Translations under genes and position numbers: made by a program
Sequence record: OR992645.1
Reading direction: 5' to 3' (one strand)
DNA: 64,000 nt
Origin: Escherichia phage EI-SP-GF
Notes under the pieces: generated by a model
What the model was told of the DNA's origin: nothing
Databases searched by the model: none
What the model saw: only the letters and a program-made list of their open reading frames with translations
Shown here: positions 2,238 through 62,501 of the stretch, in pieces
How positions within the stretch are numbered: position 1 is the first letter of the stretch
Layout of the letters: each line of letters starts with the position of its first letter

Positions 2238-2275
2238 GTTGGGACTCCTTTCAGATTGAGATGTGTCAAGGACTT

Positions 2276-2798: not shown

Positions 2799-3272
2799 TT
2801 AGTCAACCTGAACCCAACTGCCTGCTACCTTTTTAAACATTCTCTGGTTATCACTGCCTCGGAATGGTTTCTTTGTTGGTAAATCTTTTACATACTTGCC
2901 ATCAATGATGATATCAGCCAGCTCAAGAACATCACTAGAGATATGCTCAAATGTGAACCCAGTATACACAAGAATAGTTTTCTTGTCACCAAACTTTTCC
3001 TTAATTCTCCTCATAAGTTTAATAATACCGGGCTCATTATACGTAGCCAAAGGCTCTCCACCAAGCAAAGAAATACCGCATATAGATTCATTGTCCAAAT
3101 CTGACAAAATTCTCTGCAAATCTTCTTCGGTGAATTCTCTTCCCTTATCTTTGGACCAAAATGCTTGATTAAAGCAACCATGACAAGCGTGTGGGCACCC
3201 AGATACCCACAAGGCCGTCCTGAGACCTGGCCCTTCGGTGTAGGATATTTCTGTGTATCCGACAATATTCAT
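2799..3272 (-). CDS. nrdG: anaerobic ribonucleotide reductase activating protein (radical SAM)
   Basis: N-terminal CPHACHGCFN cysteine motif; directly downstream of nrdD. Confidence 0.85.
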   Translation of the reverse strand: MNIVGYTEISYTEGPGLRTALWVSGCPHACHGCFNQAFWSKDKGREFTEEDLQRILSDLDNESICGISLLGGEPLATYNEPGIIKLMRRIKEKFGDKKTILVYTGFTFEHISSDVLELADIIIDGKYVKDLPTKKPFRGSDNQRMFKKVAGSWVQVD

Positions 3273-3385
3273 AAGTACTCCGCATCACATTTAGGACAAT
3301 GCCAAATAAAATCATCCAGTGCCTTGCACCAACGAAGATTGCAATGACAACCACACTTGCAAATTTTATAAATACCTGACGACAT
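3269..3385 (-). CDS. small Cys-rich zinc-ribbon-like protein (38 aa)
   Basis: Hand-translated MSSGIYKICKCGCHCNLRWCKALDDFIWHCPKCDAEYL; stop TGA overlaps nrdG ATG (ATGA); below ORF-track size cutoff. Confidence 0.35.
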   Translation of the reverse strand: MSSGIYKICKCGCHCNLRWCKALDDFIWHCPKCDAEYL

Positions 3386-3448
3386 ACTGCACCTCCTAGT
3401 TTACTGTGTAACAACAATATGCCACATCCTTGTGGCTTTTGTCAAGTA

Positions 3449-19978: not shown

Positions 19979-20449
19979 TCAATCAAGGACAACACCGCCT
20001 GCCTTTTTAAACACCTCGATCAACTTCTCAATCTTCTGTTCATGCTGACCATATCCAGCACCAGGTAACGAAGCCCAGCGGGAACGGCATTTATGGATAG
20101 CCTCGTGGATACGCCCTTCGTCAATGTCGGCGAGAGCCTTGCACTCACGGATCAGTTGCAACGCAATCTTGTCCTGACTGGCAGGGCCAAAATCTGGCAA
20201 TCCTAACTGTTCCATGTAGTGTTTAGCAAACTTCTCCAAAACCTGGTAACGCCCAGCAGCGGAGGAGGTAAGTTTAGCATTTAGCTTAACGTACACACCT
20301 GGATGCTTGCTGTAATCGCTAAACAGCTTGCCACCAACTATGACATCATAGCCCCGATCCTTGGTGGGTTGTCTACCATTATCTGTGCCTTCTGAATATG
20401 CGATCATATCCAAGAAAGCTTTTCGTTGAACATTTTTATCAAGTTTCAT
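19979..20449 (-). CDS. endolysin, lambda R-type lytic transglycosylase
   Basis: Near-collinear similarity to lambda R: QRKAFLDMIAYSEGTDNGRQ...GYDVIVGG...WASLPGAGYGQ. Confidence 0.85.
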   Translation of the reverse strand: MKLDKNVQRKAFLDMIAYSEGTDNGRQPTKDRGYDVIVGGKLFSDYSKHPGVYVKLNAKLTSSAAGRYQVLEKFAKHYMEQLGLPDFGPASQDKIALQLIRECKALADIDEGRIHEAIHKCRSRWASLPGAGYGQHEQKIEKLIEVFKKAGGVVLD

Positions 20450-20573
20450 TTTTCATACTCTCCAGTTTACTCATAACTAACCAGATCAACAACACTACAC
20501 AGTGTGGTTATGTAGGTGCCAATTGAAAAACCATCATTCGATTGGCTACCGTTACCTACTAAACCTTCCTACA

Positions 20574-21857
20574 TCATTCCAGAACCTCCCAAGTGTCTGG
20601 GTCAACATTTCGGACGCAGATACCGACAGGGAATTGGTAGTTGTTGTCTTCTGTCCTTGATTGATATTTGAAGGTGACAAACTTGCCGATCATTTCCTGC
20701 ATCCTGTCATAGCTACGCTCCTCGTGCGTGCCTTTCATCTTCATTTTAACAATAACACCTTCCTTGTCAACACAGATAAGAACACCTTCATCATTCTTAT
20801 CTTTCTCAACGTCAATAACTTTCACCTCTGCGTCGTTGAACTTTTTCCATTTCAATGCTTCAGATGTTCGCTGACCGTACTCGTATTTACCGCAGAAATT
20901 ACGCATGATAGTACCTTCATATCCTTCGGACATGAATATACCAACAGATTCTTCGCAATGATCAACTGTGTACGCAAGCTCTGCGTCAACAACCTTGATA
21001 TGGTCAAGCATCAGAGTGGTAACAGTATCCTCTGCATCCATAAGATCCTTGCAGCGTCCAGACTCTGTTTCTGGATCCCACCACACCTTGTCGCTAGGAA
21101 TATCAAAAATGTGATACTCCAGATCGTAGCTACAGTACCCACCGTAACGCAAATCATCACGAACAGGCTCAACATCGACAGGAATATCTACCTTGTTGAA
21201 GTTTTTGTATGTTGATAAGCCTGCCTTAATTGCTGCATGACGGCGTTTTTTATCTGCCTCATAGTCTTTATCGATCTCGGCCTGAATCTCTTCCTGTGTG
21301 CGCCACCGTTTAGCAAGAGACACTATTTTCTGCAAAGGAAGACCATGAATGTATAGTTCCCCATCAAGTTGTTTAATCCCAGTGGTAGAATGGAAAGAAC
21401 GAAGTTGCTCTAAAAGCTTTCCTTGAATAGGGTAGGACTTATTACCACGGGAAATAAATTTAGGCTCACCATTTTGGAAAACAACAAGCAGACGAAGGCC
21501 ATCTAACTTACGCAAGATCCAGCAAGGTAATTTAAGTGCCTTGCCACGCTTCAGGTAGTCATGCACCAGCATGGGTAAAAGATCAACACCCTGCTCGCAA
21601 TCTTCCATGTTTTCAACATACCCCAGACGGACTTGTTTTTCCCACTTGCTGATAGCCTCAAGCTCGGCCTGTTGCTCAGCTGTAGTCTCGTTGGCACGAC
21701 CTACGTTCTTAGGTGTGCATACCGTCTCTTTGTACTGCAGTTTACCATCAAGCTTGCCAAACTCTACGATAACCTTATCACCATCCGTGAATACTTTCCA
21801 CTGTTGGTAGCTGCCATCTTTATTCAGTGCGTACAGTGTTGTTTTGATCTGATGCAT
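20574..21857 (-). CDS. ATP-dependent DNA ligase
   Basis: Nucleotidyltransferase motif I KLDGLR and motif IV EGYEGTIMR. Confidence 0.6.
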   Translation of the reverse strand: MHQIKTTLYALNKDGSYQQWKVFTDGDKVIVEFGKLDGKLQYKETVCTPKNVGRANETTAEQQAELEAISKWEKQVRLGYVENMEDCEQGVDLLPMLVHDYLKRGKALKLPCWILRKLDGLRLLVVFQNGEPKFISRGNKSYPIQGKLLEQLRSFHSTTGIKQLDGELYIHGLPLQKIVSLAKRWRTQEEIQAEIDKDYEADKKRRHAAIKAGLSTYKNFNKVDIPVDVEPVRDDLRYGGYCSYDLEYHIFDIPSDKVWWDPETESGRCKDLMDAEDTVTTLMLDHIKVVDAELAYTVDHCEESVGIFMSEGYEGTIMRNFCGKYEYGQRTSEALKWKKFNDAEVKVIDVEKDKNDEGVLICVDKEGVIVKMKMKGTHEERSYDRMQEMIGKFVTFKYQSRTEDNNYQFPVGICVRNVDPDTWEVLE

Positions 21858-43742: not shown

Positions 43743-46082
43743 ATGGCTACAAATAAGATAGTTGCCACAACAGTCAACAAGATTGGCTTTGAGATAGAGA
43801 ACTCCTCCTACAAAAAAGCTGTAGAGAAAATTCGCAGTATCGGGAAGGAGTTCAGGAAACTGGGCGAGGATTTTAACTCAGCCAACCCTATGAGCAGATG
43901 GCAGGCAGTGGCTGTTAAAACTCAGCAGACAATGCAACGTGTTGCCAGACAGCAATCCCAAGCAAATGCTAAACTGCACAGGGAGAGCGTTGCTCAGGCC
44001 AAGAAAGAGGCTGCAGTAAAGGCTGCAATAGAGCGCAGGGAGAATGCAAGACGTAAGCAAGCTGTAGGCAATATTACCGCCAAAAACCCAGAGATGGCTA
44101 GGATGCGTAAGTTCTACCAGCAGCAAGCTAAAGAGGCCAAAAAAGCTGCCAAATCTGCACCAGTATCCTATGGTGGTTATAAGGCACCTAAGGCAAGAGT
44201 TCTTGCTAACGCCAAGTCTTTCAGATATATCCCAGGCAACCCTAACATGGGTGGGGTGGCTTCAGATCCTAATCTTGTGAAAGCCCAGACTGCTGCCATG
44301 AACCGTTATCACAGACAGTTAAGAAGGGACAGCAAAGCTGGGATGGATAATAGGCTTATGGCAGATCGTGAGGCAAGGAGAACCCACCTCTACAACTCTG
44401 CGATAAGACTTTCTGCCAAATATGGTGCCGGATTCCGTGGTAGTCTGTCTGGATATTCGGAGTTGGAGTCCAGATTTGCTCGCGGGGAAATGAGTAAGTC
44501 AACCTTTAACGCCCACCTGTCTGCGTTGCAGTCTGGGTTTAAAAGTGCCACCAGCCAAACTCTGACCCTCGGTGATGCTATGAGGGATTTGCGTAGATCT
44601 GTAATCAACGCTACAGCTGCGTATACCGCTTTTTCTGGATTTGCTGCAGTTAACAGATCCGGTCATATGATGGAGGGGGCAAGTGCTGCTCTTACTGCTG
44701 TTACTGGAGATCCAAACAAAGCCAACAGTGAAGTTGCGTTTGTCCAGCAGGAGGCTATGCGTCTTGGTTTTGACCTCAAGTCTGGTCTTCAGGGTTATTC
44801 TCAGATGGCGGTGAACGCCAAAAATCAGATGACAAACCAAGAGGTGCATGAGCTATTCTCTGCATACTCGCAGTATGCTGCTGCTTACGGTGCCGATGAG
44901 GTAAAATACCAGCGCGGTATTATGGCAATCCAGCAAATGCTCGGTAAAGGGCAAGTAATGTCCGAAGAACTGAAGCAACAACTTGCTGAAGCATTACCTG
45001 GTGCATACGAACCTTTTATCAAAGCTACCCAAGAGGCTTTTGGTCTTGCTGAGCTCTCCATGGATCAGTTCATGGATATGATGAAAAAAGGTGAAGTTAA
45101 AACAGCCAAGATCATGAAGTATGTGGCTAAGTACATGAATGAGGCATCTGCAGCTGGTTATGAAAGAATGCAGAAGTCTAACGTACTGGCAGAAAACAGA
45201 CTGAAAACCTTTATTGAACTGTCCCGTCAGAAACTGTTCACACGTTGGGCAGATGAGCTGACAGAGTTCTACTACACCTTAATCCGCACAGGTGAGACCC
45301 TGCAATTTGTGTGGGATGCCGCTGGTGATTTTGTTAGCGGGTTTGTGAGAGGTTTGAACTGGGTTGTTGGTGAACTAAACAACACTATAGTTAAGATCCG
45401 TTTGTTTTTCCTTGAATGGGGAATTAAATGGGGTATCATAACTGCTAAGACGAAGGAATATTCCGAAGAGATACATGACACCTTTAGCATGGCTAAATGG
45501 GCAGGGTATGCTGCTGCAATCATGCTGGTAGTGAACGCCCTTACCAAAGGGTTTGTTATGGCATCCATGCTTGTAAAAACATTTAAGTTCCTCAGCAACC
45601 TGAGAGGTGCAGCTGGAGCTGCAGGTGCTGGTGCAGTAACCGCAGACGGCTCTGGAGGAGGAGCAGCCGGAAAAGGTGGTGGAGGCATTAAGACGCCTGG
45701 CGGTAAAGTTGGCATTCTTGGCAAACTAGGTATCATTGGCACAATACTGAGTGCCGGAGAACTATTTAATGACCGTTTCAACCCGCTGAGTGAAAGAAAT
45801 CAACAGCTGGATACCATCAGCGATATGATTCGTAAAGACATCATATCTGGAGGTAACGGGTTTGTTGATCCTCTAAGCACCTTGCCGGGAGGTACTCTTC
45901 CGTTACCAGGTGGTCCTGGTTTTGCTTCTCAATTAAGAACCATGGAAATGCTACCTTTAGAGATCAGTGATGGTAAAATCACGATTTCAATAGATGAGGG
46001 TGAGTTTAGCAAAATATTTGATGCAAAACTTGAGTGGGAGAACAGTAAAGATATCAACTTTATGTCCACAGACCTTTGGTAA
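43743..46082 (+). CDS. tail tape measure protein
   Basis: 779 aa, Ala/Gln/Lys-rich helical sequence with Gly-rich segment, downstream of chaperones. Confidence 0.8.
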   Translation: MATNKIVATTVNKIGFEIENSSYKKAVEKIRSIGKEFRKLGEDFNSANPMSRWQAVAVKTQQTMQRVARQQSQANAKLHRESVAQAKKEAAVKAAIERRENARRKQAVGNITAKNPEMARMRKFYQQQAKEAKKAAKSAPVSYGGYKAPKARVLANAKSFRYIPGNPNMGGVASDPNLVKAQTAAMNRYHRQLRRDSKAGMDNRLMADREARRTHLYNSAIRLSAKYGAGFRGSLSGYSELESRFARGEMSKSTFNAHLSALQSGFKSATSQTLTLGDAMRDLRRSVINATAAYTAFSGFAAVNRSGHMMEGASAALTAVTGDPNKANSEVAFVQQEAMRLGFDLKSGLQGYSQMAVNAKNQMTNQEVHELFSAYSQYAAAYGADEVKYQRGIMAIQQMLGKGQVMSEELKQQLAEALPGAYEPFIKATQEAFGLAELSMDQFMDMMKKGEVKTAKIMKYVAKYMNEASAAGYERMQKSNVLAENRLKTFIELSRQKLFTRWADELTEFYYTLIRTGETLQFVWDAAGDFVSGFVRGLNWVVGELNNTIVKIRLFFLEWGIKWGIITAKTKEYSEEIHDTFSMAKWAGYAAAIMLVVNALTKGFVMASMLVKTFKFLSNLRGAAGAAGAGAVTADGSGGGAAGKGGGGIKTPGGKVGILGKLGIIGTILSAGELFNDRFNPLSERNQQLDTISDMIRKDIISGGNGFVDPLSTLPGGTLPLPGGPGFASQLRTMEMLPLEISDGKITISIDEGEFSKIFDAKLEWENSKDINFMSTDLW

Positions 46083-49158: not shown

Positions 49159-49875
49159 ATGGCTACGCTTTATAGTGATATATTGATGGACCCACAGACA
49201 GGTGATTTGGCGATAGACAAAGGTCTTGAGTTGATAGATTCAAACCAAGTAAGTCTGCGCCAGCGCCTGTGGATGAGGTTTAATACATGGAAGGGGAGCT
49301 GGTACTTTGATGAGTTGTTTGGCTTCCCTTATATGGACTTTCTCAGTAAGAAGGTCATGAAGACTGTTCTTGATAACAAGATTATGGAAGTGGCAAGACA
49401 AGAGCCAGATGTGCTAAACATCATAAACTTCCAGTCTACTATGGATCGAAGATCGAGAACATACCAAGCGTTCTTTGAGGTTGTTACCAAGGAGAACGAG
49501 ATTGTAAGGCTGGCTTTCGTAGGTCTTGATCAGTTTACCTACCCACAGCCTGATGACGGGGCAACCTCTCTTTGTGATGATGAAGGTTGGATTAAGTGGG
49601 CTAATAAACTGTACTACCTGATCAACTTCAGATTGCCTAGAACTGGAGATGCTACGTGGTGGAACCAGTATGCTGGTCCTGAGATGGAAAACCCGATTCC
49701 TGTAGGTTCTCTGTTGACTCAGAATAAAGATCTGTTGATGACTGATGCAGAACAAACCATTAACCGCAATACCTGGACGCTTGCTCCAGATGAGCGCGAA
49801 TATTCTGGTGTTATTGCTACCTCTAATGATGAGGCTATTGCCAACCAGTCTGGTCGTGCTATCGATGTTAACTAA
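49159..49875 (+). CDS. putative baseplate wedge protein (gp25/GpW-like N-terminal domain)
   Basis: LELIDSNQVSLRQRLWMRFNTWKGSWYFDELFGFPY resembles the gp25/GpW family signature. Confidence 0.4.
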   Translation: MATLYSDILMDPQTGDLAIDKGLELIDSNQVSLRQRLWMRFNTWKGSWYFDELFGFPYMDFLSKKVMKTVLDNKIMEVARQEPDVLNIINFQSTMDRRSRTYQAFFEVVTKENEIVRLAFVGLDQFTYPQPDDGATSLCDDEGWIKWANKLYYLINFRLPRTGDATWWNQYAGPEMENPIPVGSLLTQNKDLLMTDAEQTINRNTWTLAPDEREYSGVIATSNDEAIANQSGRAIDVN

Positions 49876-49884: not shown

Positions 49885-50553
49885 ATGGCTGTAGCTTATC
49901 CTACAATACCAATCCCAGATCTTGAAGATGCAGAAACAGTCTTGAGTGATGACTTCTTGGTTGTCAACCAGACTGACGGGACAAGAAAGGCTAAGATTGA
50001 TGATGTTGTCAATGATCTTAGCATTACTAAAATAGTTTATTTCACAGAGGGCGGTTATCTTAAGAGCAAGAAGGATTTTGCTTATGATCCGGAAACTAAG
50101 CGCTACTACACATGGAATGGAGATTATCCTAAAATAATCCTCCCAGATTCTACTGTAGAGGGTGCCGGAGGTGTGTCTGCAAAAGCATGGTCTGTTTTTG
50201 GAGAGCTTGCTGCAACTTCTTCAGGTAGGATAGTTGATTACGGCTCTATTGGTGGTCAACTTGACATGGATCTTGACGTTGCAGACACGTTTAAAGTTCG
50301 GCTCACTTCAAACACTACAATCTCTTTTGAAAATCAAACAGAAGGGCTCGACGGAGTGGCAAGAACTATAACTGTATGCATAACGCAGACCTCGGGTGGT
50401 AACAAAGTTTATTGGCCTGACAATGTTAAATGGGCCTACGGGAGAGATCCTATCCTAACATTTACAGCTGGTGCAACAGACATTTTCAAGTTGGAAACAT
50501 ATGATAATGGACTAACTTGGTACGGGGCACTGATCATCGCAGGAGCTATCTAA
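49885..50553 (+). CDS. tail fibre-related protein sharing N-terminal domain with 53188 fibre
   Basis: N-terminus ETVLSDDFLVVNQTDGTRKAKIDDVV parallels DDYLVVQQPDLTRRVKIGDVV of the 1268-aa fibre. Confidence 0.4.
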   Translation: MAVAYPTIPIPDLEDAETVLSDDFLVVNQTDGTRKAKIDDVVNDLSITKIVYFTEGGYLKSKKDFAYDPETKRYYTWNGDYPKIILPDSTVEGAGGVSAKAWSVFGELAATSSGRIVDYGSIGGQLDMDLDVADTFKVRLTSNTTISFENQTEGLDGVARTITVCITQTSGGNKVYWPDNVKWAYGRDPILTFTAGATDIFKLETYDNGLTWYGALIIAGAI

Positions 50554-50554
50554 G

Positions 50555-53152
50555 ATGCGTATTCAACACAACATTGATAACGTATTTCAGATGATCGAGG
50601 GGCACAGGAAGTGCCTCGATAACAACACAGGTATTACCAATCTCCCTACACAGAACAAACTGGTAAACCAGGATGGACTTATAGCGTCAGGTTGGTCAGG
50701 AAGTAAGATAAATAATGATTGGGCAATGCATGAGTCCCAAGCCGTGTTGATTCTGGGATACATTGAGGCATACAGGGCATCAAAAAGCGATTTTTATCTA
50801 GACAGGGCCAAAGAGGCTTGGGAAGCCTACAACAGTCATCTTCTGGGAGTATATGCAGTAGAAAGTAAAATGCAAAGATTGTCCCACTACCCGTTATCCA
50901 CAGATGGAGTTCCATCACATGGTGGGTTTAAAGATGTGGTTGTGTCTTTTAACAAAGGTAGAGGAAAAATCCCAGCAGGATCCCCGACATGGGGAGAATA
51001 CTTGGACAAGGCTTTTCAGGCGTATAACGGTGTTTTAGGAAGAAACACTGTAGACTCTGATGTTTACGGCGGCACAGATGCTAATCCTAATTGGACAACT
51101 TCCGGATTAAGTTGGTGGGTTGAGTGGTATATAGCATGGGATGGTAACCGCTATTGGGCCAACGGTAGCATAGCCGACAGTGGTCATACGTCTGCAGAGT
51201 TCGGCACAATCCAACTGCAAGATAAGGGTGTTACAGGCAACCACAAGGTTACCTATTGTGTGAGATTGCCTAAAGAGCAGGGAGGATCGGTGATACCTGC
51301 TGGATCCCCTGTAATTGTAAATCCTATAAACGTGGTTGCAGACAATCAAGCCCCAGAGTTAGACGGGGAAGAGATGTGGTGTGACGCTTGTTATCAACTC
51401 TACACCTTGACAGGTGAGGAAAAGTATTACACCGCGTTTAAGCAGTCTTACAATAAGTTGCTTAATTTTAGTGATATAAATGCCTACGACAAGCTGTTCA
51501 GAAAGACCACGTTGATTAAGGCCCCGTTCACAGATGGCACTTGTCTAGTTGCAGGAACAGTACCTGTCATGAGTAGGGATAGTGACGGATATATCAATTT
51601 TAGAATGAACGCACGCCAGCCTTGCGAAATAATCCAAAAAGGGACTACATACAAAATAGGCAGAGATGCTGAAATTGTTATGAATTTCGGAGGAGAAGGG
51701 GTTCTGTTCCAGCCACATTTCATCCTTAATGATGGCAACAATAACAAAAAACAGTACAGAATAGGTGTACCTTTTGGAGGGGCAGAGGTAACAGAAACAG
51801 TTGCCAAGGTTACTGATTTTGTAGAGGTGGTTGGTAAAGACGGTAACCCGTATCTCTTGCCAAAAGAGGAAAACATTGCCGTAAGCGGTGGCGCTAGTGT
51901 TAGTATGCAGTATGATACCGACATTTACAACCACTCTGACAACTTCACCCGTTGCAACATAGTAAGAGGCAAGGTAACTTTCAATTTTGGAAGAGAGATT
52001 TCTTTAAACTCAGTGACTTATCGGTCAGATGATGAGATGGTAAGGGTCAAATTTCTTGACAAAGACCGTTGGTTATGGTATGCTGATCTATATGCTACTA
52101 ACGGGCAATGGATAACAGAAACTCTTACCCTGGGCGATTTTAAACTAGACCCAACACAACCTCATCACACAGAAGATGAGATTAAACCTTTCTTTGCTAA
52201 CCCTAAAGGAATTACCTCTGTAGATTTCAGTCTGAGCGACAGGCAGATAGGCAATGGCTTGTTCGATCTGTATTGCGTCAACACGCTGCCGCAATTTTAT
52301 GTTGCAGATAGGGATGCTTATCTGATCTGGTTTAGTGTATGGATGGCAAGCAAGACAGAATCAACCGCCAAGGTTGGTGATTGCTATGTCAGAAACTACA
52401 AGCAAGGAGCATACAGACACACTCCTGGTGTGTTCCCTGCTGGGAAGGTGATAGATAAGGAAAACTATCTCTTAGAGGAAAAGCCAAATTGGCCCTATCC
52501 TGGCATGCAATACCCAGCAGTCTACTGCATGGGTGCAGAAAACATAGATCGCCATAGATTGTCAAATACAATAGGCTTTCTGTACGACTCTCAAGTCTGG
52601 TATAATAATACATTTAAGACAGAGGGTCCAGTTGCCTCACGTTATGTATGGCAAAGAGGTAATGAAGGGTTGACTGGTTGGTGGGAGATGGTAGATAACT
52701 CTAAGCTCCAGTCAAGATCTTTTGTTGCTGCGTGCCGCACAATATATGAGCTCAAGAAACATAAAGAACCTGTTGATGAAAGACTGTTCCTGTTCTGCCA
52801 GAAATGGGCATGGTTCCTCAACAGATTCCAGTCATCTCATTCAGGAAATCTACCTACAGACTTTAACACCTCTGGAGGATACTCTTATCAGGACAGAGGA
52901 GACAGGATGTGGGTGGTAGGTGAATGGCTTGCAGGTTGCTGCTGGCTAGGTCTTTGCGGGTATTCAGAGACAATACCTCAAATAGATATTGTTGTAGAGG
53001 CCTGTATGAAGTTACTGCAAAAGCACCACTTCATTAACGGGGATAATGTTTTAAACGGCTGCTGGGCAGTTTCTGATCCGGTAGGCTATCACTCTGGCGA
53101 AATCCTTCGCGGTCTGGGACTTTATGCTCAATACCGTGGATTGTACCTTTAA
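50555..53152 (+). CDS. large tail fibre/tailspike-like protein (865 aa)
   Basis: Large ORF within tail fibre cluster; no catalytic motif recognised. Confidence 0.4.
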   Translation: MRIQHNIDNVFQMIEGHRKCLDNNTGITNLPTQNKLVNQDGLIASGWSGSKINNDWAMHESQAVLILGYIEAYRASKSDFYLDRAKEAWEAYNSHLLGVYAVESKMQRLSHYPLSTDGVPSHGGFKDVVVSFNKGRGKIPAGSPTWGEYLDKAFQAYNGVLGRNTVDSDVYGGTDANPNWTTSGLSWWVEWYIAWDGNRYWANGSIADSGHTSAEFGTIQLQDKGVTGNHKVTYCVRLPKEQGGSVIPAGSPVIVNPINVVADNQAPELDGEEMWCDACYQLYTLTGEEKYYTAFKQSYNKLLNFSDINAYDKLFRKTTLIKAPFTDGTCLVAGTVPVMSRDSDGYINFRMNARQPCEIIQKGTTYKIGRDAEIVMNFGGEGVLFQPHFILNDGNNNKKQYRIGVPFGGAEVTETVAKVTDFVEVVGKDGNPYLLPKEENIAVSGGASVSMQYDTDIYNHSDNFTRCNIVRGKVTFNFGREISLNSVTYRSDDEMVRVKFLDKDRWLWYADLYATNGQWITETLTLGDFKLDPTQPHHTEDEIKPFFANPKGITSVDFSLSDRQIGNGLFDLYCVNTLPQFYVADRDAYLIWFSVWMASKTESTAKVGDCYVRNYKQGAYRHTPGVFPAGKVIDKENYLLEEKPNWPYPGMQYPAVYCMGAENIDRHRLSNTIGFLYDSQVWYNNTFKTEGPVASRYVWQRGNEGLTGWWEMVDNSKLQSRSFVAACRTIYELKKHKEPVDERLFLFCQKWAWFLNRFQSSHSGNLPTDFNTSGGYSYQDRGDRMWVVGEWLAGCCWLGLCGYSETIPQIDIVVEACMKLLQKHHFINGDNVLNGCWAVSDPVGYHSGEILRGLGLYAQYRGLYL

Positions 53153-53187
53153 CATAGGGGGCTGTTTGCCCCCTTTCAGGAGAAAGA

Positions 53188-56100
53188 ATGGCTGATATTA
53201 AAGTTGTCAGAATTGAATCTCTTCCTGCCACTACCGCAGTGACAGAGGATGATTACCTGGTTGTTCAACAACCAGACCTGACCCGTCGTGTAAAAATTGG
53301 CGATGTTGTCCATGTGGATGGGACTGTTTCTCATGTAATCTCCTTTAAGGAAGGTGGTAAGTTAAACGGCCCAATGGATTTTGCCTACTTCGAAGAGGAA
53401 GATCTATACCTGCGTTGGAAAGGCGAATTTCCACACACTGTCCCTGCACTGTCTTCACCATATTCTGACGGTGGTATTACTGACGCTGCGTGGATGGTAT
53501 ATACAGATCCGTCCTTAAGGGAGGAGCTGGAGTCTACCATTGGCGCATCTATGATCATGACAGCCGAAGGGCAGTCTGTCCAAGATGTAATGGATGTTAC
53601 TGTTCAGACAGCCAACGATGCTAAAGCACTTGCACAGCGGGTAGATTTTGGCACAGTGCATACTGTAGGCGATGTTATTCACCTTGTCAACTTTGTTGGT
53701 CCTGCAGTTATTGAAGAGGGAAGAACTACTAACTACCCTTCTGAAGCGGCGGGTGAAAAATTTCTGAACGGTGTGGTATCTCGTCGTGATACTACAACTG
53801 TTGATGGCATTTTCCGTGGCGCTACCTCCGGAGCCATGTATACCATTGCAGTAACCAACGGTGTAGCAACAACAAAAAGAATAGCACTTCGTGACGAATT
53901 TAAACGCCTGGAGGCAAACAACCCAACAAGAACAGTTATCCGTGCCGGAGATGATTTAAACACAGCAGGGTACTTGCAGCTTGATGCAACAGGCCGTTGG
54001 GGTATGTGGAACCAACAAACAGCTTCGTGGCAACCTCTTGCTATAGAGCAAGGCGGCACAGGGGCCAGAGATGCCGCAGGTGCACGCATTAATTTAGGGG
54101 CTTTCTATAAGCAACGTGCAGCCCTTGAGTCAAATTTTAATATCAATAACTTGACTGGTAATCAGGATGGTATATACTACCAGCCGATGACTGCTTATGC
54201 AACTGAGGCAAATGGTTACCCTGCAGGTTCTGGTGCTGGTCACTTGATTGTCTGGCAGAACAATGCTAACGGCGGTACAGGTTGTCGTCAGGAATACTAT
54301 CCATTCTCTAACGTAGATGTTTGGTATTTGAGAACCTATCAGGCCAACACAAATCAGTGGACTGCATGGCAGCCAATGGTCAGACCCCGTAACGATGAGA
54401 CCTTTAGATCGCACATCGGTCTTGGGTCTAGGAATTCTCCTACCTTCGGGCACCTTTACCTGTCTCAAAGCTCGGCTGATGTTAAGTCGGCATCAGGTAT
54501 TGTTAACGGGGACAAATACAGCGCTGACGGTGTCCTTGAGCATGGGTATAGGATCTACTCTGAGGTAAGAAACGACAATAAGGCTTGGTTGACAATCCAC
54601 CTGCACAAAGGCGCAAAAGGATCTGAAACTCATAGATATTTAGGCTTCCGCGAGGATGGGGTCTTAGATTGTCCTAAATATATGCAGGTTGGTGATCTGA
54701 ACGGTCAGCTGGCAAACTGGGGACTTGGAGAATGGATCCGCAGTTCAGGAGCAGAAAGAGGTTTCTGGGGATCTAAGAAAGCCGCCAAGATGGTTATCTG
54801 GGATGGCGGTATGGACGAGCAAGGTGAAGGAACGCTTGAGTGGGGTGTTTATAACAACCGGAAAGCCAAATGGGAACCACTACCGATAGCTTGTGGTGGT
54901 ACCAGTGCCAGGACTGTAGGGGATGCTCAAGCACAATTCAGAATCCCTCTGGCATCAGGCGCTAGACCATATGTAAACCTGCCTAGAACTGCAGCTATGC
55001 AGGACGGTAAGTATTATCCTATTATCGTCAGAACTGACCCCAACTTTGCAGCAACTATCGGGACAGATTTAACCATTGTCACCAGATCTTCTTCTGGCGG
55101 CGACCCAATGAACTGTGCTACACTACAGTGTCACTACAGAACTGGTGGCTGGACAGACAGAGGTGATTCTTTCCAAGGGGTTATTAATTTCTACCAAAAC
55201 GAGAGAGCAATCCTCGGATGTGTATCTCCAACCAGAGGTAAGCAGGAGTATGTTGCATTCTATGTAGAGGCACGTGCATTCCCTGTTACAGTATATGCTG
55301 GCGCTACTGTAATAGAAGTGTCAACCAGGGAGGCTGATTGGCAAGTAGGCAACGTGACAGGTAACCAAGATGGTGTCAAGTTCTGTGCTCCTCTGGAATC
55401 TGCAGATTTGAGTCTTGCAATCAAAGGTGATGATGTAACAAACACCAGACCTCTGGTTGAGTTCAAAGGAACATCAGGTTTCTACACTGGTGGTGGAACT
55501 ATGTGGCACTACCTGGGGACTCCTGAACGCTATGCAGTGATGAGCAAAACGAACATGCCTAAAGTCGAGCTGTGGGCAGACGGTCTTGACTATTTGTGCT
55601 ACGGCGGTCCTAGAAAGGCATTATTCTCTAACGCGGGATTCCAGTGTGCATCTGACGGAACAGAGGATCTAACTAACGGCACGTTTACCTCTAAATGTGG
55701 TAATGGTGCTGGCCTTAAAGGCCAAGCAGAGTTCAGGTCTACTCCAGAAGCTGGTCAAGTTATTGTTCGAGATGTTGTGGGAACAGCTCATAGATTCTAC
55801 AACTTCAACAAAGATGGTACTTTCTCAGCCCCAGGTGGTTTTGTATGTCATACTGGTGGAGACTGGAACAACCAGTTCGGGCCTAATAACCCGTCAAAAA
55901 TAATGGCTGGCAACGTCAACGGACCAGAAGGTTCGATGGTTGTTGGTGGGTTGTCTGTGGCGTTTTCTGGAAACTATGCCTTCCAAATGGCTGGTCGCCT
56001 TGATCAGTTATACACCAGATCTATTGAGGGTGGTAACCACAGGGCGTGGAACAAAGTTATTCAGCACCGTGGTCAAGGTCTGGGGACAGAAGACCTTAAT

Positions 56101-56994
56101 GCCTACGATGGTAGCCGTGAAGGTTTCTATCACCAAGGTTCAAACGCTGACGCACTTGTAATAGATCGCCACTACCCTGCTCCGTACGCTGGTACACTGC
56201 TTGTTTACAAAAACACAGCTAACAGACCTCAAGGTTGTGTGCAGGAATATATCACCTATTTTGGTGACAGATATACTCGTGCTGGTAACTACGTTGGCGA
56301 TGTCTTTACTTGGGAAGAATGGAGACACGATGCTGGTAAAGGCATTCAGTTAAGACCTAATTACACTTTTGGTGAAACCAGTAATCAACTGGAAATTCAT
56401 GTCGGTGCTAATAGTCTTTCTAGCAACGCCGATAACTTACCTACCAATACAGGTAGAATGTTCTATTGGGGTAACGCAGACAGGAAGAACGTGCTTGAGT
56501 TTCAGGTAAACGACAACGCTGCATCTGCTAGCTGGGTATTCCACTGTGGCACTAGGTCAGACGAGGCTAAGTCAAGATATTTTGCTGTCAACGGTGTAGT
56601 AGAGTGCACCACTGTGAGCCAGAGCTCTGATAGAGACCTGAAGGACAATATAGAGGTTATTCCTAACGCGCTGGAAGCTATCCGTAAGATGAAGGGCTAT
56701 ACCTACACTTTAAAAGAGAATGGTATGCCTCACGCGGGGGTAATTGCTCAAGAGGTCATGGAAGCATTGCCAGAGGCAGTAGGGTCTTTCGTGAAAAGGA
56801 AGGAAATCCCAAACCCTGATCAAGATGGAACTCCTTTGATAACAGAAGAAAGGTTCTATAACGTTGACTACGCAGCTGTAACAGGCTTGCTTGTCCAGGT
56901 TTGCAGGGAACAGGACGATAAAATAACCGCCCTTGAGGAGCAGGTTAAAAAATTGACAGAGGTTGTTACTGGGTTGCAAGAGAAACTGAAGTAA
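53188..56994 (+). CDS. tail fibre with C-terminal intramolecular chaperone (S74-like) domain
   Basis: C-terminal SDRDLKDNIEVIPNALEAIRKMKGYTYTLKE...GVIAQEV matches the autoproteolytic fibre chaperone signature; Gly-rich repetitive shaft. Confidence 0.75.
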   Translation: MADIKVVRIESLPATTAVTEDDYLVVQQPDLTRRVKIGDVVHVDGTVSHVISFKEGGKLNGPMDFAYFEEEDLYLRWKGEFPHTVPALSSPYSDGGITDAAWMVYTDPSLREELESTIGASMIMTAEGQSVQDVMDVTVQTANDAKALAQRVDFGTVHTVGDVIHLVNFVGPAVIEEGRTTNYPSEAAGEKFLNGVVSRRDTTTVDGIFRGATSGAMYTIAVTNGVATTKRIALRDEFKRLEANNPTRTVIRAGDDLNTAGYLQLDATGRWGMWNQQTASWQPLAIEQGGTGARDAAGARINLGAFYKQRAALESNFNINNLTGNQDGIYYQPMTAYATEANGYPAGSGAGHLIVWQNNANGGTGCRQEYYPFSNVDVWYLRTYQANTNQWTAWQPMVRPRNDETFRSHIGLGSRNSPTFGHLYLSQSSADVKSASGIVNGDKYSADGVLEHGYRIYSEVRNDNKAWLTIHLHKGAKGSETHRYLGFREDGVLDCPKYMQVGDLNGQLANWGLGEWIRSSGAERGFWGSKKAAKMVIWDGGMDEQGEGTLEWGVYNNRKAKWEPLPIACGGTSARTVGDAQAQFRIPLASGARPYVNLPRTAAMQDGKYYPIIVRTDPNFAATIGTDLTIVTRSSSGGDPMNCATLQCHYRTGGWTDRGDSFQGVINFYQNERAILGCVSPTRGKQEYVAFYVEARAFPVTVYAGATVIEVSTREADWQVGNVTGNQDGVKFCAPLESADLSLAIKGDDVTNTRPLVEFKGTSGFYTGGGTMWHYLGTPERYAVMSKTNMPKVELWADGLDYLCYGGPRKALFSNAGFQCASDGTEDLTNGTFTSKCGNGAGLKGQAEFRSTPEAGQVIVRDVVGTAHRFYNFNKDGTFSAPGGFVCHTGGDWNNQFGPNNPSKIMAGNVNGPEGSMVVGGLSVAFSGNYAFQMAGRLDQLYTRSIEGGNHRAWNKVIQHRGQGLGTEDLNAYDGSREGFYHQGSNADALVIDRHYPAPYAGTLLVYKNTANRPQGCVQEYITYFGDRYTRAGNYVGDVFTWEEWRHDAGKGIQLRPNYTFGETSNQLEIHVGANSLSSNADNLPTNTGRMFYWGNADRKNVLEFQVNDNAASASWVFHCGTRSDEAKSRYFAVNGVVECTTVSQSSDRDLKDNIEVIPNALEAIRKMKGYTYTLKENGMPHAGVIAQEVMEALPEAVGSFVKRKEIPNPDQDGTPLITEERFYNVDYAAVTGLLVQVCREQDDKITALEEQVKKLTEVVTGLQEKLK

Positions 56995-57002
56995 CTGTTT
57001 TG

Positions 57003-57030
57003 CCCTCGCTTCGGCGGGGGCTTTTTGTTT
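57003..57030 (+). terminator. intrinsic terminator
   Basis: Stem CCCTCGC/GCGGGGG with UUCG tetraloop, then CTTTTTGTTT. Confidence 0.7.
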
Positions 57031-57093: not shown

Positions 57094-57684
57094 ATGTTTT
57101 TATGGGAAAGGCCTAGATACCTTCCAGATATTAGATTGGAGCTGCTGGCAGATATTGTTACGTTTAAAAGTCCGTTTACAGGTAAAACGCAAAAAGTGAC
57201 CTATGCCACACCTAACTGGAAAGGCACTTTGACGGTTTCCAATATCAGCGAGTCACAGTTGCTAGAGCTTAAGAGCTTTGTTGATCAGGTGTATAAAGAC
57301 GGGAACATTTTTCTTATTAAAACGTACGGTCACTCAGTAACAGCTAATGAGCCAATCGCCCTTGGGCCTACCGGTAACGACGATTTTTTGAAGACGGTCG
57401 GATGGGAGCCAAACAGAGACATAGCCAGAGCTGGGGATAAAATATCTGTTAACGATGAATTGAAAGTGGTAACAGCTCCAGTGCGCAGCGATGGTGTTGG
57501 GTCTGCTGTTATAAGCATATCTCCAAGACTTAGAAAACCTATTGCCGCAGGGGACACTATGAAGATAATAACTCAATCCCCAAAGGGTAGGTTTCATATC
57601 AGAGATATTTATAAAATTAAGCAAAAAGTCGATGCTATGCAAAAAGGTGATAATATAGTTATCAACTTCTTTGAGGATTTCTAA
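57094..57684 (+). CDS. hypothetical tail tip protein (196 aa)
   Basis: First gene of cluster ending with J-like protein; GGAGG RBS. Confidence 0.35.
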   Translation: MFLWERPRYLPDIRLELLADIVTFKSPFTGKTQKVTYATPNWKGTLTVSNISESQLLELKSFVDQVYKDGNIFLIKTYGHSVTANEPIALGPTGNDDFLKTVGWEPNRDIARAGDKISVNDELKVVTAPVRSDGVGSAVISISPRLRKPIAAGDTMKIITQSPKGRFHIRDIYKIKQKVDAMQKGDNIVINFFEDF

Positions 57685-57685
57685 G

Positions 57686-58237
57686 ATGATTAGAGCGCCA
57701 TTAGATAATTTATTTCTTGAAAAGCTGGAGCTTGATAGTGTTGAGATCTTAATTGCTGCAAAGCTAGAGCTACCAACAGGGACTGTCAGGGTGTGCTCAG
57801 GAACTGGTGTTGTGGTGATTGAGGGGCAACATTTTATAGGGATAGGTGGATCAGCAACATTGACTGCTGTGTCTGAGAAAGATGCTACCAACTTCGGATC
57901 TGTGGTAGCAACATTGAACGGATTTGATCCCAAGTATGTAGGTGATCTGCTGAAGACAGAGTATTCGGGTTGTCGTGCCACGTTGTATATCACAGCTATG
58001 GAGAATGGTTTACCTGTTACAACCAATGGCTTGTTTGACGGCCTTATAACAGACATGGCTATTCAGACAGGGGAGAATAGTGCTTTGTCCATATCCATAT
58101 CTTCCATCTTCAACAGCTGGTTAAGAGGTTTTCCTTATCGATACACAGAGGAGAGCCATAGCTCAAGAAACGATAATGACAGATTTTTTAAATATGTGGA
58201 TCAGGTGGCAAGCCGCCCGATCATTTGGGAGGTTTAA
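57686..58237 (+). CDS. hypothetical tail tip protein (183 aa)
   Basis: Start moved to ATG 57686 just after upstream stop. Confidence 0.35.
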   Translation: MIRAPLDNLFLEKLELDSVEILIAAKLELPTGTVRVCSGTGVVVIEGQHFIGIGGSATLTAVSEKDATNFGSVVATLNGFDPKYVGDLLKTEYSGCRATLYITAMENGLPVTTNGLFDGLITDMAIQTGENSALSISISSIFNSWLRGFPYRYTEESHSSRNDNDRFFKYVDQVASRPIIWEV

Positions 58238-58662
58238 TGAGCACACACCCTCGTTTAGTAGACTGGCAAGAAAGATTGTGGAAAGTGTTTGACGAAGAAG
58301 CTACCGTCCAGTTTGAATGGGGATTCCACGATTGTTGCACTTTTGCGGCTAAATGTGTTGATGCCCAATATGGAACAGATTTTCTTTCTAACTTTGAAGG
58401 AACGTATAAAACAGAGTTGGAAAGCAAGAGATGGTGCATGCTCCGTTTCAAAACCACCCACCTGCCTACTATTTTTGATCTCTTTTTGACTCGACTGGAT
58501 ACTCCTAAACAGGTTCAGCGTGGCGATATTGTTATTTTCGAAGGTCTGAACGGGCTCACCGCTGGTGTGTTCTGGAACAACCAGATTTGGGCGAAAGGTG
58601 ATAAGGGGATCTTTATGTTCGACATGAAAGATTCTATCGTTGTTGATGTCTGGAGGTATTAA
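58237..58662 (+). CDS. hypothetical tail tip protein with Cys/His motif (141 aa)
   Basis: Start moved to ATG 58237 (GGGAGG RBS, TAATG overlap); WGFHDCCTFAAKC could be a peptidase-like site. Confidence 0.35.
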   Translation: MSTHPRLVDWQERLWKVFDEEATVQFEWGFHDCCTFAAKCVDAQYGTDFLSNFEGTYKTELESKRWCMLRFKTTHLPTIFDLFLTRLDTPKQVQRGDIVIFEGLNGLTAGVFWNNQIWAKGDKGIFMFDMKDSIVVDVWRY

Positions 58663-61600
58663 TGCCAATTGCAATGATTGATAACATCGTTGCTTCTGCA
58701 AGATCTTCGAGCTATGACTGGAACGCATCCAAGGCAGCTCTGGCTGACAGCCTGAACACTGTTACCACCAGAACCCTGGATAAGATTTTCGAAGGTAACA
58801 AATCTTACAGAAGTCAGCAAGATAGACAAAAGCTTCTCAGATCTTCTGCTGCACCTTGCTCTGTAGTGTATGGGAAGACACGCACATCTGGATTGCTTGC
58901 GTTTTTGGAGCAGGACAGGGACAGAACCCTTCATTGTGCTATTGTTCTTGCCAATCATCCCTTGGAAGGTATAGAAGATATACTTATCGACGGTAATCCT
59001 ATTTCCTCGTATGGGGATTTGGTATCGTGGGAGTTACATAACGACAGGAAAACCTCTGATCCTTTCATGGGTACACACTGCCCTTCGTGGTCACCAGACA
59101 TGATAGGTAGAGGGATCAGTTGGCTACGTGCCAGCTTTAAGTTTGACCCTAACAAGTTTCCTTTTGGGTTGCCAAACGTTACACTCGTCAAGGTTGGTAA
59201 AAAATGTTATGATCCTCGTATCAGTAAAGAGGTGTATACCAATAACGCTGCCTTGGTGATTCTGGACTACCTAAGAACGTACCTTAAATGTCCTGACGAA
59301 ACCATCAACTGGGAGTCCTTCAAGGAAGCTGCCAACATATGCGATGAGGCTGTAAAAAACGCGGACGGAACCAGTGAGCGCCGTTACACCATTAATGGCG
59401 AGTTCGACATGGATGAAGCACCAGCAAGCATTATGGCAGAGATGCTGAAAGCTTGTGGTGCAGACCTTAGCTATGTAGCTGGCAAATATGGTCTGCTGGT
59501 AGGTGCATACTATGGCCCGGCAACAATGACACTTAGCGAGAACTGTGTTTGCGGTGAGGTTAAGATCTATCCTGAAGCCTCCTTCGACAAAAGATCCAAC
59601 ACAATAACTGGCAGATTCACTAGTCCGGCCAAAGGGTATTCTGAAACAGATTTTCCATCAGTGTTTGTCCCAGAGTGGGTAGAGAAGGATGGAGAAAGAA
59701 AGATAATCGATATAGATTATCGCTTTGTTACCAGTCCTTATCAAGCTCAGCGTGTTTCTGCAATCTTCTTAAGACGTGCCAGAGCTGGTAGGATTATTGA
59801 AGTAACCTGCAATATGCGGGGTTTTAAATTTAAGCCTGGGCGTTACGTTACGATGGACCTCCCAAGTATTGGTATAGTGGGCCAAGAAATGAGGGTTCTT
59901 GAATGGGAGTTCACCAAAAAGGGCGGTGTCAAGGTAAAACTCCGTCAAGATGCTAAAGAGTGGAATGATGCCACAGGGCAACTTCCGGATTCTGGAGATG
60001 TGGATATTCCGATATCCCCGTCCGGCGTAGCTCAACCGCAAAACTTCAGATACTCTGTTCTTCAAGCTGGGGAAGTAACTCATGGTGTTTTGGCTTGGGA
60101 CAACGTTGGAACTTATGCTCAAAATATTGTGCAGGTAAGAAAGAACGGAGAGATTATTTGGACAGCACAGACAGTTGAGCAGTTTGTCCGCGTAGAAGGA
60201 TTGACCAAAGGGTCATACACAGCAACCGTGGTTGCAACATCTTATAAAGGTGGTGTATCTCCAGAAGCTTACTGCGAGTTTAACATTCAAGCACCTGAAG
60301 CTCCTGTTTCTGTAGAAGTTAAGCAGGGATACTTTGCTATCACCTTGATTCCGCACAGCAGGGACTTAGCAAGTGTAAGCACCCAGTATGATTTTTGGAC
60401 ATCTGGTATGACAAGGTTGCCGGACACAAGTGATGCAACCGTTACTTCAAAAGCCACCCGTATGGGTGTTGGTTCAACTTGGACATCTGAAGGTCTGCAG
60501 AACGATAAGATTTATTATTGGTATATTCGAACCACAAACGCTTTTGGTAGTTCTCAGTTTGTAGAATGCGCTGCACGCTGCTACACCTCTATTGAAGATT
60601 TGATGCCTCAGATAGATGCTGAATTTAAAAAGACAGAAACTTATAAAGAGTTGATGAGCACTTTAGATTCCTCTATCGAGGAGGTTGAAAATCGTGTCAC
60701 AGAGCTTAACAAGTACATGGACGGAAGGGTAGATGAGGCATTCCAACAACTTGGAGATAGGATAGGTGCGGTAGTTGCAGAGACAACTCAGAAGTTTGAG
60801 GATGTCAATGGTAATATCACAGCTCTGGATAGGAAACTTGTTGCTGCACAGAACAAGTTCACCAACGATCTGAACACTGAAAGTGGAAGACTGGCATCCC
60901 TGATCGAGACAACCAATAAAGCAACCACTGATCTTCTGAACAAAAAGACAGAGGCTTTAGACGAGAAATTGGTTGCAGCCAAAGGGGAGTTGGTAGAACA
61001 AATAAGTGGTGTGGAGAGCGGATACCTTGCCGGAGATAAAACTCTAGATGGCAAGATCAATACCCAGAGAACGGAACTTGATGCAAGCATCTTAAGCACC
61101 AACCAGGCGACAGTGGATCTTCTCAACAGGACATCTGAAACTTTGGATCAAAAGATCAGTCAGACAAACGCGACGGTATCTAAGAACTATACCACCCTTG
61201 ATGGTAAGATAACTACCGCAAAAACTGATCTCAATACCTTGATTGCCAATACCAACAAGGCCACCACAGATTTGTTGAATCAGAAAACCTCTGCACTGTC
61301 GGAGCAGATAACTTCTGCACGTGGAGAAATTTCTACCAACAAACAGGCGATTAAGGATTTGGATGGTAAGCTGACCTCCACAAAAACAGCACTGGACGCT
61401 ACAATCTCCGATACCAACAAAGCAACCGTGGATCTTATTAACGGCACAGCGTCAGCTATTCGTCAAGAACTTGCTGTTGCTAAGCAGGAGATCATTGATG
61501 ATGTCGGTGATGTGTCAGAGCTTAGAGCTGCAGTAGCTACAACATCTAAGGCTGTGACAGACTTAGAGGGCAAAGTAACTGCTCAATGGGGCACAAAAAT

Positions 61601-62501
61601 ACAGGTAGACTCCGCAGGGAATAAGTATGTGGCAGGTATCCAATTGGGCATGGAAGGCTCTGGAGGCCAAGTTCAATCATACTTCATGGTTAGTGCAAAC
61701 AACTTTGCGGTATACAACCCCGGAAATGGAACAGCAACCCTTGCTTTCGCAATCAAGAACAACCAAGCATTCTTGAAAGATGCTTTTATAGAGAACGGGA
61801 CGATCTCTTCTGCCAAGATTGCACAAGAAATTTCGTCTAACAACTACGATGGCAACGGGTACCATAAATACGGTTGGTATATTAACAAGAACGGACACGC
61901 CCAGTTTATGGATGTGTGGGTGAAAGGTAACATCAACGCTAGTGCAGGTAACTTCACAGGGGCAGTTAACGCTACCAGTGGCACTTTCCGTGGGGATGTT
62001 TATGCCAATAATGGTAGCTTTAGAGGCACCATAGATGCAACAGGAGGTACATTCCGTGGACGTGTAGAAGCTTCCGTTATCCGTGCTAACCAGTTCGAAG
62101 GTGCAATCGTTGCACATAGGACCTATGGTGACTGTCCTCCGGTATATAACTCGCAGCAGAGGGTTTGCCGTTGGAGGTGGAGATATGTGGACAACGTTTC
62201 AGGGCAAGGTAAGAACGTAACATTCTTCTTTAAACTAAACGGAACCTTGTCTGGCTCCCAGCTCAACGTTTGGATAGCCGGACATCAAATCCTTGCAGGT
62301 AAGAAGTACGGAAACGACAACAACGGCATGTGTGCGGTAGGGATAACTGGTCTCGGTGAACAAACCATAGACATTATCGTCGAGATATACACACCATGGT
62401 CAACGTCAAGCGTGACAGGAGTTACAATATCTTGTCCAACCGTAATAGTTAGTCGTTCAAACTCTAGCTTCCAGGGACCTTGGAACGAGTCTCATGACTA
62501 A
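58662..62501 (+). CDS. lambda gpJ-like tail tip / host specificity protein
   Basis: Segments APEAPVSVEVKQGYFAITLIPH, YYWYIRTTNAFGSSQFVE and KYVAGIQLGMEG...FMVSANNFAV parallel lambda J; internal 30-aa coiled-coil repeats. Confidence 0.7.
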   Translation: MPIAMIDNIVASARSSSYDWNASKAALADSLNTVTTRTLDKIFEGNKSYRSQQDRQKLLRSSAAPCSVVYGKTRTSGLLAFLEQDRDRTLHCAIVLANHPLEGIEDILIDGNPISSYGDLVSWELHNDRKTSDPFMGTHCPSWSPDMIGRGISWLRASFKFDPNKFPFGLPNVTLVKVGKKCYDPRISKEVYTNNAALVILDYLRTYLKCPDETINWESFKEAANICDEAVKNADGTSERRYTINGEFDMDEAPASIMAEMLKACGADLSYVAGKYGLLVGAYYGPATMTLSENCVCGEVKIYPEASFDKRSNTITGRFTSPAKGYSETDFPSVFVPEWVEKDGERKIIDIDYRFVTSPYQAQRVSAIFLRRARAGRIIEVTCNMRGFKFKPGRYVTMDLPSIGIVGQEMRVLEWEFTKKGGVKVKLRQDAKEWNDATGQLPDSGDVDIPISPSGVAQPQNFRYSVLQAGEVTHGVLAWDNVGTYAQNIVQVRKNGEIIWTAQTVEQFVRVEGLTKGSYTATVVATSYKGGVSPEAYCEFNIQAPEAPVSVEVKQGYFAITLIPHSRDLASVSTQYDFWTSGMTRLPDTSDATVTSKATRMGVGSTWTSEGLQNDKIYYWYIRTTNAFGSSQFVECAARCYTSIEDLMPQIDAEFKKTETYKELMSTLDSSIEEVENRVTELNKYMDGRVDEAFQQLGDRIGAVVAETTQKFEDVNGNITALDRKLVAAQNKFTNDLNTESGRLASLIETTNKATTDLLNKKTEALDEKLVAAKGELVEQISGVESGYLAGDKTLDGKINTQRTELDASILSTNQATVDLLNRTSETLDQKISQTNATVSKNYTTLDGKITTAKTDLNTLIANTNKATTDLLNQKTSALSEQITSARGEISTNKQAIKDLDGKLTSTKTALDATISDTNKATVDLINGTASAIRQELAVAKQEIIDDVGDVSELRAAVATTSKAVTDLEGKVTAQWGTKIQVDSAGNKYVAGIQLGMEGSGGQVQSYFMVSANNFAVYNPGNGTATLAFAIKNNQAFLKDAFIENGTISSAKIAQEISSNNYDGNGYHKYGWYINKNGHAQFMDVWVKGNINASAGNFTGAVNATSGTFRGDVYANNGSFRGTIDATGGTFRGRVEASVIRANQFEGAIVAHRTYGDCPPVYNSQQRVCRWRWRYVDNVSGQGKNVTFFFKLNGTLSGSQLNVWIAGHQILAGKKYGNDNNGMCAVGITGLGEQTIDIIVEIYTPWSTSSVTGVTISCPTVIVSRSNSSFQGPWNESHD

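Follow-up and report, generated by a model that had tools for sequence, protein, structure and literature searches.

A shared N-terminal handle on two virion proteins of an rV5-like Escherichia phage, with a probable adaptor role for the smaller protein

Two proteins with similar N-termini in the baseplate region

The window analysed here, a 64,000-nucleotide stretch of Escherichia phage EI-SP-GF (OR992645.1), is the tail and baseplate region of a Vequintavirus, an rV5-like myophage. Two proteins encoded on its + strand start with a similar segment of ~105 residues, which we refer to as the handle. The smaller is a virion protein of 222 residues (49885..50553), matching phrog_7760 over its full length, in which the handle is followed by a conserved C-terminal domain (C-domain). 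The larger is a lateral tail fibre of 1268 residues (53188..56994; phrog_6578 over its full length), which carries its handle in cis and has a C-terminal Peptidase_S74 intramolecular chaperone (residues 1147-1198, 56626..56781, +; Pfam E 1.8e-16, 60.6 bits against a gathering cut-off of 22 bits). Between the two lies the gene for an 865-residue gp42-like large tail protein (50555..53152, +; phrog_2871), a putative glycosidase without an anchor of its own. By size and gene order, the 222-, 865- and 1268-residue proteins correspond to rV5 gp43, gp42 and gp41, respectively, all three of which have been detected in virions by mass spectrometry (PMC3606486). The slot occupied by these receptor-binding proteins (RBPs) is bordered upstream by a sheath-initiator-like baseplate protein (49159..49875, +; phrog_4233, phrog_120), a homologue of phi92 gp139, which is the sheath initiator in the cryo-electron microscopy (cryo-EM) structure.

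The initial annotation had proposed that the 222-residue protein and the fibre begin with parallel sequences, and this is borne out. Both open reading frames (ORFs) exist as described, and the peptides quoted for them are found at residues 10-42 of the 222-residue protein and 9-41 of the fibre; a further pair of motifs, FAYDPE in the former and FAYFEE in the latter, is located at residues 65-70 in both. A BLASTP alignment of residues 8-105 of the 222-residue protein with residues 7-105 of the fibre has 38 of 99 positions identical (38%), 54 of 99 positive and one gap (E = 2e-18). Smith-Waterman alignment of the two N-terminal 110-mers gave a score of 176, compared with 27.4 +/- 4.8 (maximum 57) for 2,000 shuffles (z = 31), while the same shuffle test with the full-length proteins gave z = 25, so the similarity clearly exceeds that of shuffled controls.

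The likeness is present at the protein level only, as no DNA repeat links both genes at the expected 3.3-kb spacing. Together with a protein identity of only 38%, this indicates that the duplication is old, and it also leaves the genome without a substrate for recombination between the handle copies. An equivalent pair of paralogues occurs in Seunavirus, in Certrevirus-like phages and in phi92. Using a hidden Markov model (HMM) built from the two copies, we detected no third handle in the window or in 31.7 kb of the homologous locus of phage RudolfGeigy. Judged from these alignments, the N-termini of the 222- and 1268-residue proteins are true paralogues, forming homologous handles of ~105 residues.

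Composition of the handle and its distal partners

The handle had at first been described as a single N-terminal module; it is instead a composite of a peptide (part A) and a PF18668 domain (part B), of which only part A is common to the phi92 pair. In the 222-residue protein, N-terminal alignments place part A, a putative docking peptide, at residues ~1-47 (49885..50025, +), and part B, a TD-like neck of the Tail_spike_N family (PF18668), at residues ~48-106 (50026..50202, +). The handle of the fibre comprises residues ~1-105 (53188..53502, +), as delimited by BLASTP against the 222-residue protein and by its Pfam match. Residues 51-104 of the smaller protein match PF18668 with 40.4 bits and residues 46-103 of the fibre with 40.7 bits, the gathering cut-off being 25 bits. 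Part A is ~45 residues long with the consensus TVKIsDLPxAxxVxxxDyLVVdQxDxTrKxS, and that of the 222-residue protein aligns with the N-termini of the 1268-residue fibre, PVP-SE1 gp51 and gp49, phi92 gp140 and gp143, and many metagenomic RBPs. The fold of part B is that of the TD domains solved for CBA120 TSP1, TSP3 and TSP4 and for G7C gp63.1. AlphaFold2 (AF2) modelling with a 9-sequence alignment produced an unusable model (mean predicted local distance difference test score, pLDDT, of 41.5); in a second model, built from 30 sequences, part A has low pLDDT in the monomer and is drawn as a beta-hairpin (residues 24-37) followed by a helix (residues 38-44).

The two parts are separable. In phi92, gp140 consists of part A and the C-domain, and the endosialidase gp143 of part A and the enzyme, both without part B. 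The same phage encodes gp151 (positions 19320-21281 of our locus L003), which has a PF18668-like part B near its N-terminus (residues ~21-82) without part A, so that its attachment mode must differ from that of gp140 and gp143. Some metagenomic proteins have an insertion of 60-80 residues between A and B. Peptide A itself always occupies the N-terminal extreme and, in our data set, is confined to RBPs encoded in the slot flanked by the sheath-initiator and wedge genes; as far as alignments define it, it stands at the extreme N-terminus of all slot RBPs in Vequintavirinae, Stephanstirmvirinae and related contigs. By eye, Kolesnikvirus gp041 and Asesino gp140 also seemed to contain A-like motifs, but hhalign gave no support for them (E 0.079 and 0.33) and they were dropped. 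We found nothing about this handle in the BASEL papers, the receptor-prediction preprint or the S144 paper.

Word-indexed searches that used the N-terminal module or the 222-residue protein as query returned only 4-5 close matches, and both an exhaustive search of representative proteins and a broader alignment were required. The exhaustive profile search identified 589 proteins at E <= 0.001. The complete handle was found at residues 1-110 of representatives of 617, 827, 988, 1481 and 1599 residues, and it is also N-terminal on others of 518-871 residues. Looked for in relatives with other distal domains, the module was found in front of S74 chaperones, a Collar domain, right-handed beta-helices, a colanidase and an endosialidase. 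The colanidase is gp49 of PVP-SE1, a phage with identical gene order in which the third gene encodes this colanic-acid-degrading protein of 712 residues. GenBank annotates it as 'similar to rv5_gp043 at N-terminus'; the N-terminal likeness had thus already been spotted by the annotators.

A degenerate DNA pattern for DYLVV[DEQ]QxD retrieved 7 loci. In the IMG/VR loci L014, L015 and L016 (86-147 kb, Vequintavirinae-like), the sheath-initiator gene is followed by 2-3 RBPs, all starting with part A, whose distal parts are pectate-lyase-like, GDSL esterase, BNR and, in a 276-residue protein, S74. A sheath-initiator homologue flanks the RBP slot in L014-L017, and a wedge gene ends it in L015 and L016. 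The adaptor/gp42 pair described below is missing from L014-L016, where the first position of the slot is taken by a single-chain A-tailspike.

Across Vequintavirus genomes, the first ~2,900 nt of the fibre gene are conserved and divergence is found in the last quarter; the handle of the 222-residue protein shows 99% identity or more in 109 records. Exchange right behind the handle is thus a matter between genera, whereas within the genus Vequintavirus it is the tip that is exchanged. The original picture of paralogous attachment modules on different distal domains, exchanged as modules, is accordingly kept in part. The two copies are true paralogues, the distal domains behind the handle vary in relatives, and modular exchange behind it is supported by these sequence comparisons between genera; what is not supported is exchange at this junction within Vequintavirus and, probably, the classification of the 222-residue protein as a fibre.

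The 222-residue protein as a putative adaptor for the gp42-like enzyme

Beyond its handle, the 222-residue protein contains a beta-sandwich of ~110 residues and nothing more. This C-domain (residues ~112-222, 50218..50550, +) is modelled with pLDDT 80-88 and is further supported by HMM matches. Annotations of its relatives call the protein either 'sialidase domain protein' or 'tail fiber protein'. Searches of PDB sequences gave no match for the C-domain profile and none for the 865-residue protein. Homologues of the latter are widespread, occurring in 524 phage records from myo-, podo- and jumbo phages.

In 10 of the 11 lineages sampled, the ORF that immediately precedes the gp42-like gene is matched by the C-domain HMM, at E values of 1e-18 to 1e-59. 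These ten are the rV5-like phages, PVP-SE1, phi92, Rosemountvirus BP63, the T7-like podovirus ISAO8, a Kolesnikvirus, Erskinevirus Asesino, PMBT28, Vibrio phage D506 and the 353-kb phage UB (1e-18 to 1e-31 for the last seven). The N-terminal halves of the small C-domain proteins are mutually unrelated across lineages. The gp42-like proteins, for their part, are conserved and aligned from about residue 10 in all lineages, which leaves them without a lineage-specific anchor. In ISAO8, the N-terminus of the small protein is PF03906, the T7 tail-fibre N-terminal domain, and this is the only protein of the locus with such a tail-attachment domain. PF03906 attaches T7-type fibres to the tail.

The two genes are also closely spaced. 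In the window, the stop codon of the 222-residue protein and the start codon of the 865-residue protein are 1 nt apart, with an AGGAG within the upstream ORF, and across the paired lineages the stop and start codons of the small gene and the enzyme gene abut or overlap. Direct reading of the sequence revealed a GC hairpin between the genes for the 865- and 1268-residue proteins (GGGGGC-TGTTT-GCCCCC, then TTT; 53157..53173, +), which the terminator scan missed because its T-run is short. The scan did detect an intrinsic-terminator-like hairpin with a T-run 3' of the fibre gene (57002..57021, +), in which 8 pairs, 7 of them G-C, are followed by TTTTTGTTTG. The two hairpins suggest that the small gene and the enzyme gene on the one hand, and the fibre gene on the other, are separate expression units.

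We propose that the 222-residue protein is probably an adaptor, with its handle on the baseplate and its C-domain holding the 865-residue enzyme, so that the baseplate would carry a fibre in cis and an enzyme in trans. We favour this reading, which draws on synteny and domain architecture, because the pairing of C-domain and enzyme is kept while the N-termini vary, because the enzyme is anchorless yet rV5 gp42 is present in virions, because the two genes are only 1 nt apart, and because in L014-L016 a single-chain A-tailspike stands where the pair would be. The protein is probably not a fibre; the initial annotation had taken it for one, yet a distal receptor-binding part of its own is unlikely given that, in nearly all of the lineages compared, the C-domain marks the small gene that directly precedes the gene for the gp42-like enzyme. 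In the proposed arrangement, peptide A, perhaps with part B, would plug each trimer into the baseplate periphery, and as a consequence very different distal parts could be swapped behind the handle. The 1268-residue fibre would be mounted in cis, its handle being followed by a long shaft, a variable tip and a self-cleaving S74 chaperone. The handle of the 222-residue protein would likewise dock on the baseplate, its C-domain would hold the enzyme in trans, and synthesis of the enzyme would be translationally coupled to that of its adaptor. In this way, a single kind of handle may serve two different host-recognition units, the enzyme in trans and the fibre in cis.

Several observations weigh against this interpretation. 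The profile of part A has no significant match among the sequences of solved structures in the PDB, the best being crAss001 gp22 (E 0.12), alongside an unrelated reductase. The second AF2 model of the 222-residue monomer has an overall pLDDT of 68.7, and while the C-domain is good and part B moderate, part A, the supposed docking element, is below 50. PF18668 is found elsewhere behind unrelated anchors, such as the helices at the N-terminus of Sf11 gp13, which means that part B alone is not lineage-specific. We also asked whether the paralogous handles sort into clean orthologous groups, which would bear on whether there are one or two docking sites; pairwise identities fail to separate them, being 49% between PVP-SE1 gp51 and gp49 and only 38% between the rV5-like fibre handle and gp49. 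The eleventh lineage, Serratia phage PCH45 (positions 1658-5656 of our locus L008), has a single gp42-like protein of 1332 residues with ~280 extra N-terminal residues. Residues 217-258 of this protein resemble the C-domain motif (WPxNxxW...; HMM E 0.037; hhalign E 0.002, probability 14%); support for a natural fusion of C-domain and enzyme is weak, and it was not used as evidence. Finally, the C-domain fold recurs in BFVD, where long fibres have it at their C-termini (181 matches at E <= 1e-3, with targets of 117-1496 residues), and it resembles the capsid spike of Pa223 (9ny6_C) and the glycan-binding sandwiches of CpaA and StcE, so that the domain could be a small binding knob and not a docking platform.

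This last point is central to an alternative that sees the 222-residue protein as a very short fibre or stub in its own right. Its handle would dock on the baseplate here too, its beta-sandwich would be a small glycan- or receptor-binding knob, the enzyme would be attached in some other way and the gene order would reflect co-regulation or joint function. Besides the fold similarities just described, the databases label the protein a tail fibre, and the authors of the phi92 study considered gp140 a fibre candidate. Such a stub would leave the enzyme to be anchored otherwise, yet the gp42-like protein, although a virion component, has no N-terminus peculiar to one lineage, whether in myo-, podo- or jumbo phages. 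The sole T7 tail-attachment domain of the ISAO8 locus sits on the small C-domain protein, and the pairing, with its abutting or overlapping codons, is kept in 10 of the 11 lineages. We consider an independent stub unlikely on these grounds, if still worth keeping in mind.

Alternatively, the shared module might serve tailspikes generically, as a trimerisation or neck element and common folding scaffold, with attachment seated elsewhere. In many solved tailspikes PF18668 is internal and follows other anchors (residues 103-159 of CBA120 TSP1, TSP4, and residues 150-260 of Klebsiella spikes), and in Sf11 the tail is contacted by helices at residues 4-59, upstream of the PF18668 domain. These cases concern part B, whereas part A is invariably at the extreme N-terminus, is common to phi92 gp140 and gp143 even without B, and within our data set keeps to one genomic slot with homologous sheath-initiator and wedge genes. 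In Ackermannviridae, moreover, TD1 of TSP1 and TSP3 has itself been reported to contact XD3. A purely generic neck is in our judgement quite improbable. Chance or compositional resemblance, or else a recent intragenomic duplication or gene conversion, is favoured only by the shortness of the region and can for practical purposes be set aside. Chance is contradicted by the alignment statistics (z = 31 against shuffles, E 2e-18), a recent event by the missing DNA-level repeat and the protein identity of only 38%, which point to an old one, and both by the recurrence of the paralogue pair in Seunavirus, Certrevirus-like phages and phi92.

Comparison with known systems and the surrounding genes

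PVP-SE1 (gp51/gp49) and phi92 (gp140/gp143) resemble the window in encoding a sheath initiator, a small handle protein, a gp42-like enzyme and a handle-bearing RBP, and as in the window both members of each pair carry the N-terminal peptide. The RBP of the third gene differs, being a colanidase in PVP-SE1 and an endosialidase in phi92 compared with the 1268-residue S74 fibre here. phi92 departs further from the window in that gp140 and gp143 lack part B and the slot contains an extra gene, gp142. According to the 2026 cryo-EM study of phi92 (PMC13450770), the wedge protein gp145 is joined by fibre I at its C-terminal domain, and fibre II, which joins the base of fibre I, could not be assigned; gp15, gp140, gp150 and gp151 were tested, and gp141 is never mentioned. 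Two A-bearing units side by side, one of them gp143 and the other gp140 with gp141, would be expected to fit this fibre picture. The adaptor reading can be extended tentatively, to a view that is plausible if in our estimate a little short of probable: the genes for the 222- and 865-residue proteins would constitute a mobile two-gene RBP cassette that moves among myoviruses, T7-like podoviruses and jumbo phages, swapping only the anchor of the adaptor, and phi92 gp140-gp141 would form fibre II or an arm of fibre I, placed beside gp143 through part A. This makes gp140-gp141 a concrete and checkable candidate for the fibre left unassigned in the cryo-EM study.

By analogy, the system of the window may act like the RBP systems with conserved N-termini and variable C-termini of Ackermannviridae, G7C and K1-5/SP6. 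In the Ackermannviridae, as in CBA120, the TD domain of TSP1, TSP3 and TSP4 is PF18668, the same family as part B. The RBPs of these phages have conserved N-terminal structural domains and variable C-terminal receptor-binding parts, and whole RBPs are exchanged between phages. In their branched tailspike complex, TD1 and TD2 of TSP1-4 dock on gp10-like XD domains, the reported contact between TD1 of TSP1 and TSP3 and XD3 being one instance. A Pfam scan detected no gp10-like XD domain here, and structural hints of one are weak. TSP4 of Limestonevirus consists of structural N-terminal domains only, which provides a precedent for an RBP-less scaffold. The gp63.1/gp66 pair of G7C (Gamaleyavirus), a podovirus, also shares PF18668 with the window. 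Work by Prokhorov et al. in 2017 is said to have placed the attachment of the G7C pair in the gp10-like domain of gp66; a domain like that of gp66 was not found here.

Closer to the proposed adaptor are systems in which a separate or small virion component provides the anchor and the enzyme is held in trans. An arm-like adaptor holds the endosialidase in K1E, K1-5 and SP6 (described for K1E and K1-5 in PMC13450770), and in Sf11 a helix of the distal-tail-protein adaptor holds gp13, which carries PF18668 as do the handles of the window. The adaptor domains of these phages are not homologous to the C-domain of the 222-residue protein, and the pairing proposed for the window is drawn from synteny.

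Conserved N-terminal handles make phage host range engineerable, as virions should incorporate a new distal domain once it is joined to the right handle. In rV5-like phages, candidates for biocontrol and therapy of E. coli O157, the handle is now defined as residues ~1-105 with a core at residues 1-47, and the small adaptor may offer a second mounting route. The gain is incremental, since the general principle of a shared N-terminal handle for exchangeable RBPs is well established, PF18668 is known and the likeness was already annotated in part in the PVP-SE1 record; the cassette of adaptor and enzyme is less described.

The + strand order across the region is tape measure protein (43743-46082), tube initiator, plug, hub, spike, sheath-initiator-like protein, the 222-, 865- and 1268-residue proteins and a lambda-J-like cassette (57094-62501, +), which is of siphovirus tail-tip type and lies within a myovirus baseplate cluster. 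This cassette encodes a 196-residue 'distal tail protein' (phrog_1302), a 188-residue tail protein (phrog_2048), a 145-residue DUF6950 protein and a 1279-residue lambda-J-like protein with Ig_J, Ig_J_second and Phage_Tail_Tip domains. It is found in rV5-like phages; PVP-SE1 and phi92 lack it, and their RBP slot directly adjoins the wedge gene.

Over 3.7 kb, the region shares 99.6% identity with Escherichia phage S127 BCL3, and it is 90-98% identical to 118 further phage records. Most of these 118 bear Escherichia phage names (FV3, V18, RudolfGeigy and others), RudolfGeigy being classified as a Vequintavirus. A set of 18 'Campylobacter phage' records (MG0656xx, host C. jejuni) is 90-95% identical to the region of the window, with C11 and C2 listed at ~94%; these genomes are probably mislabelled or contaminant.

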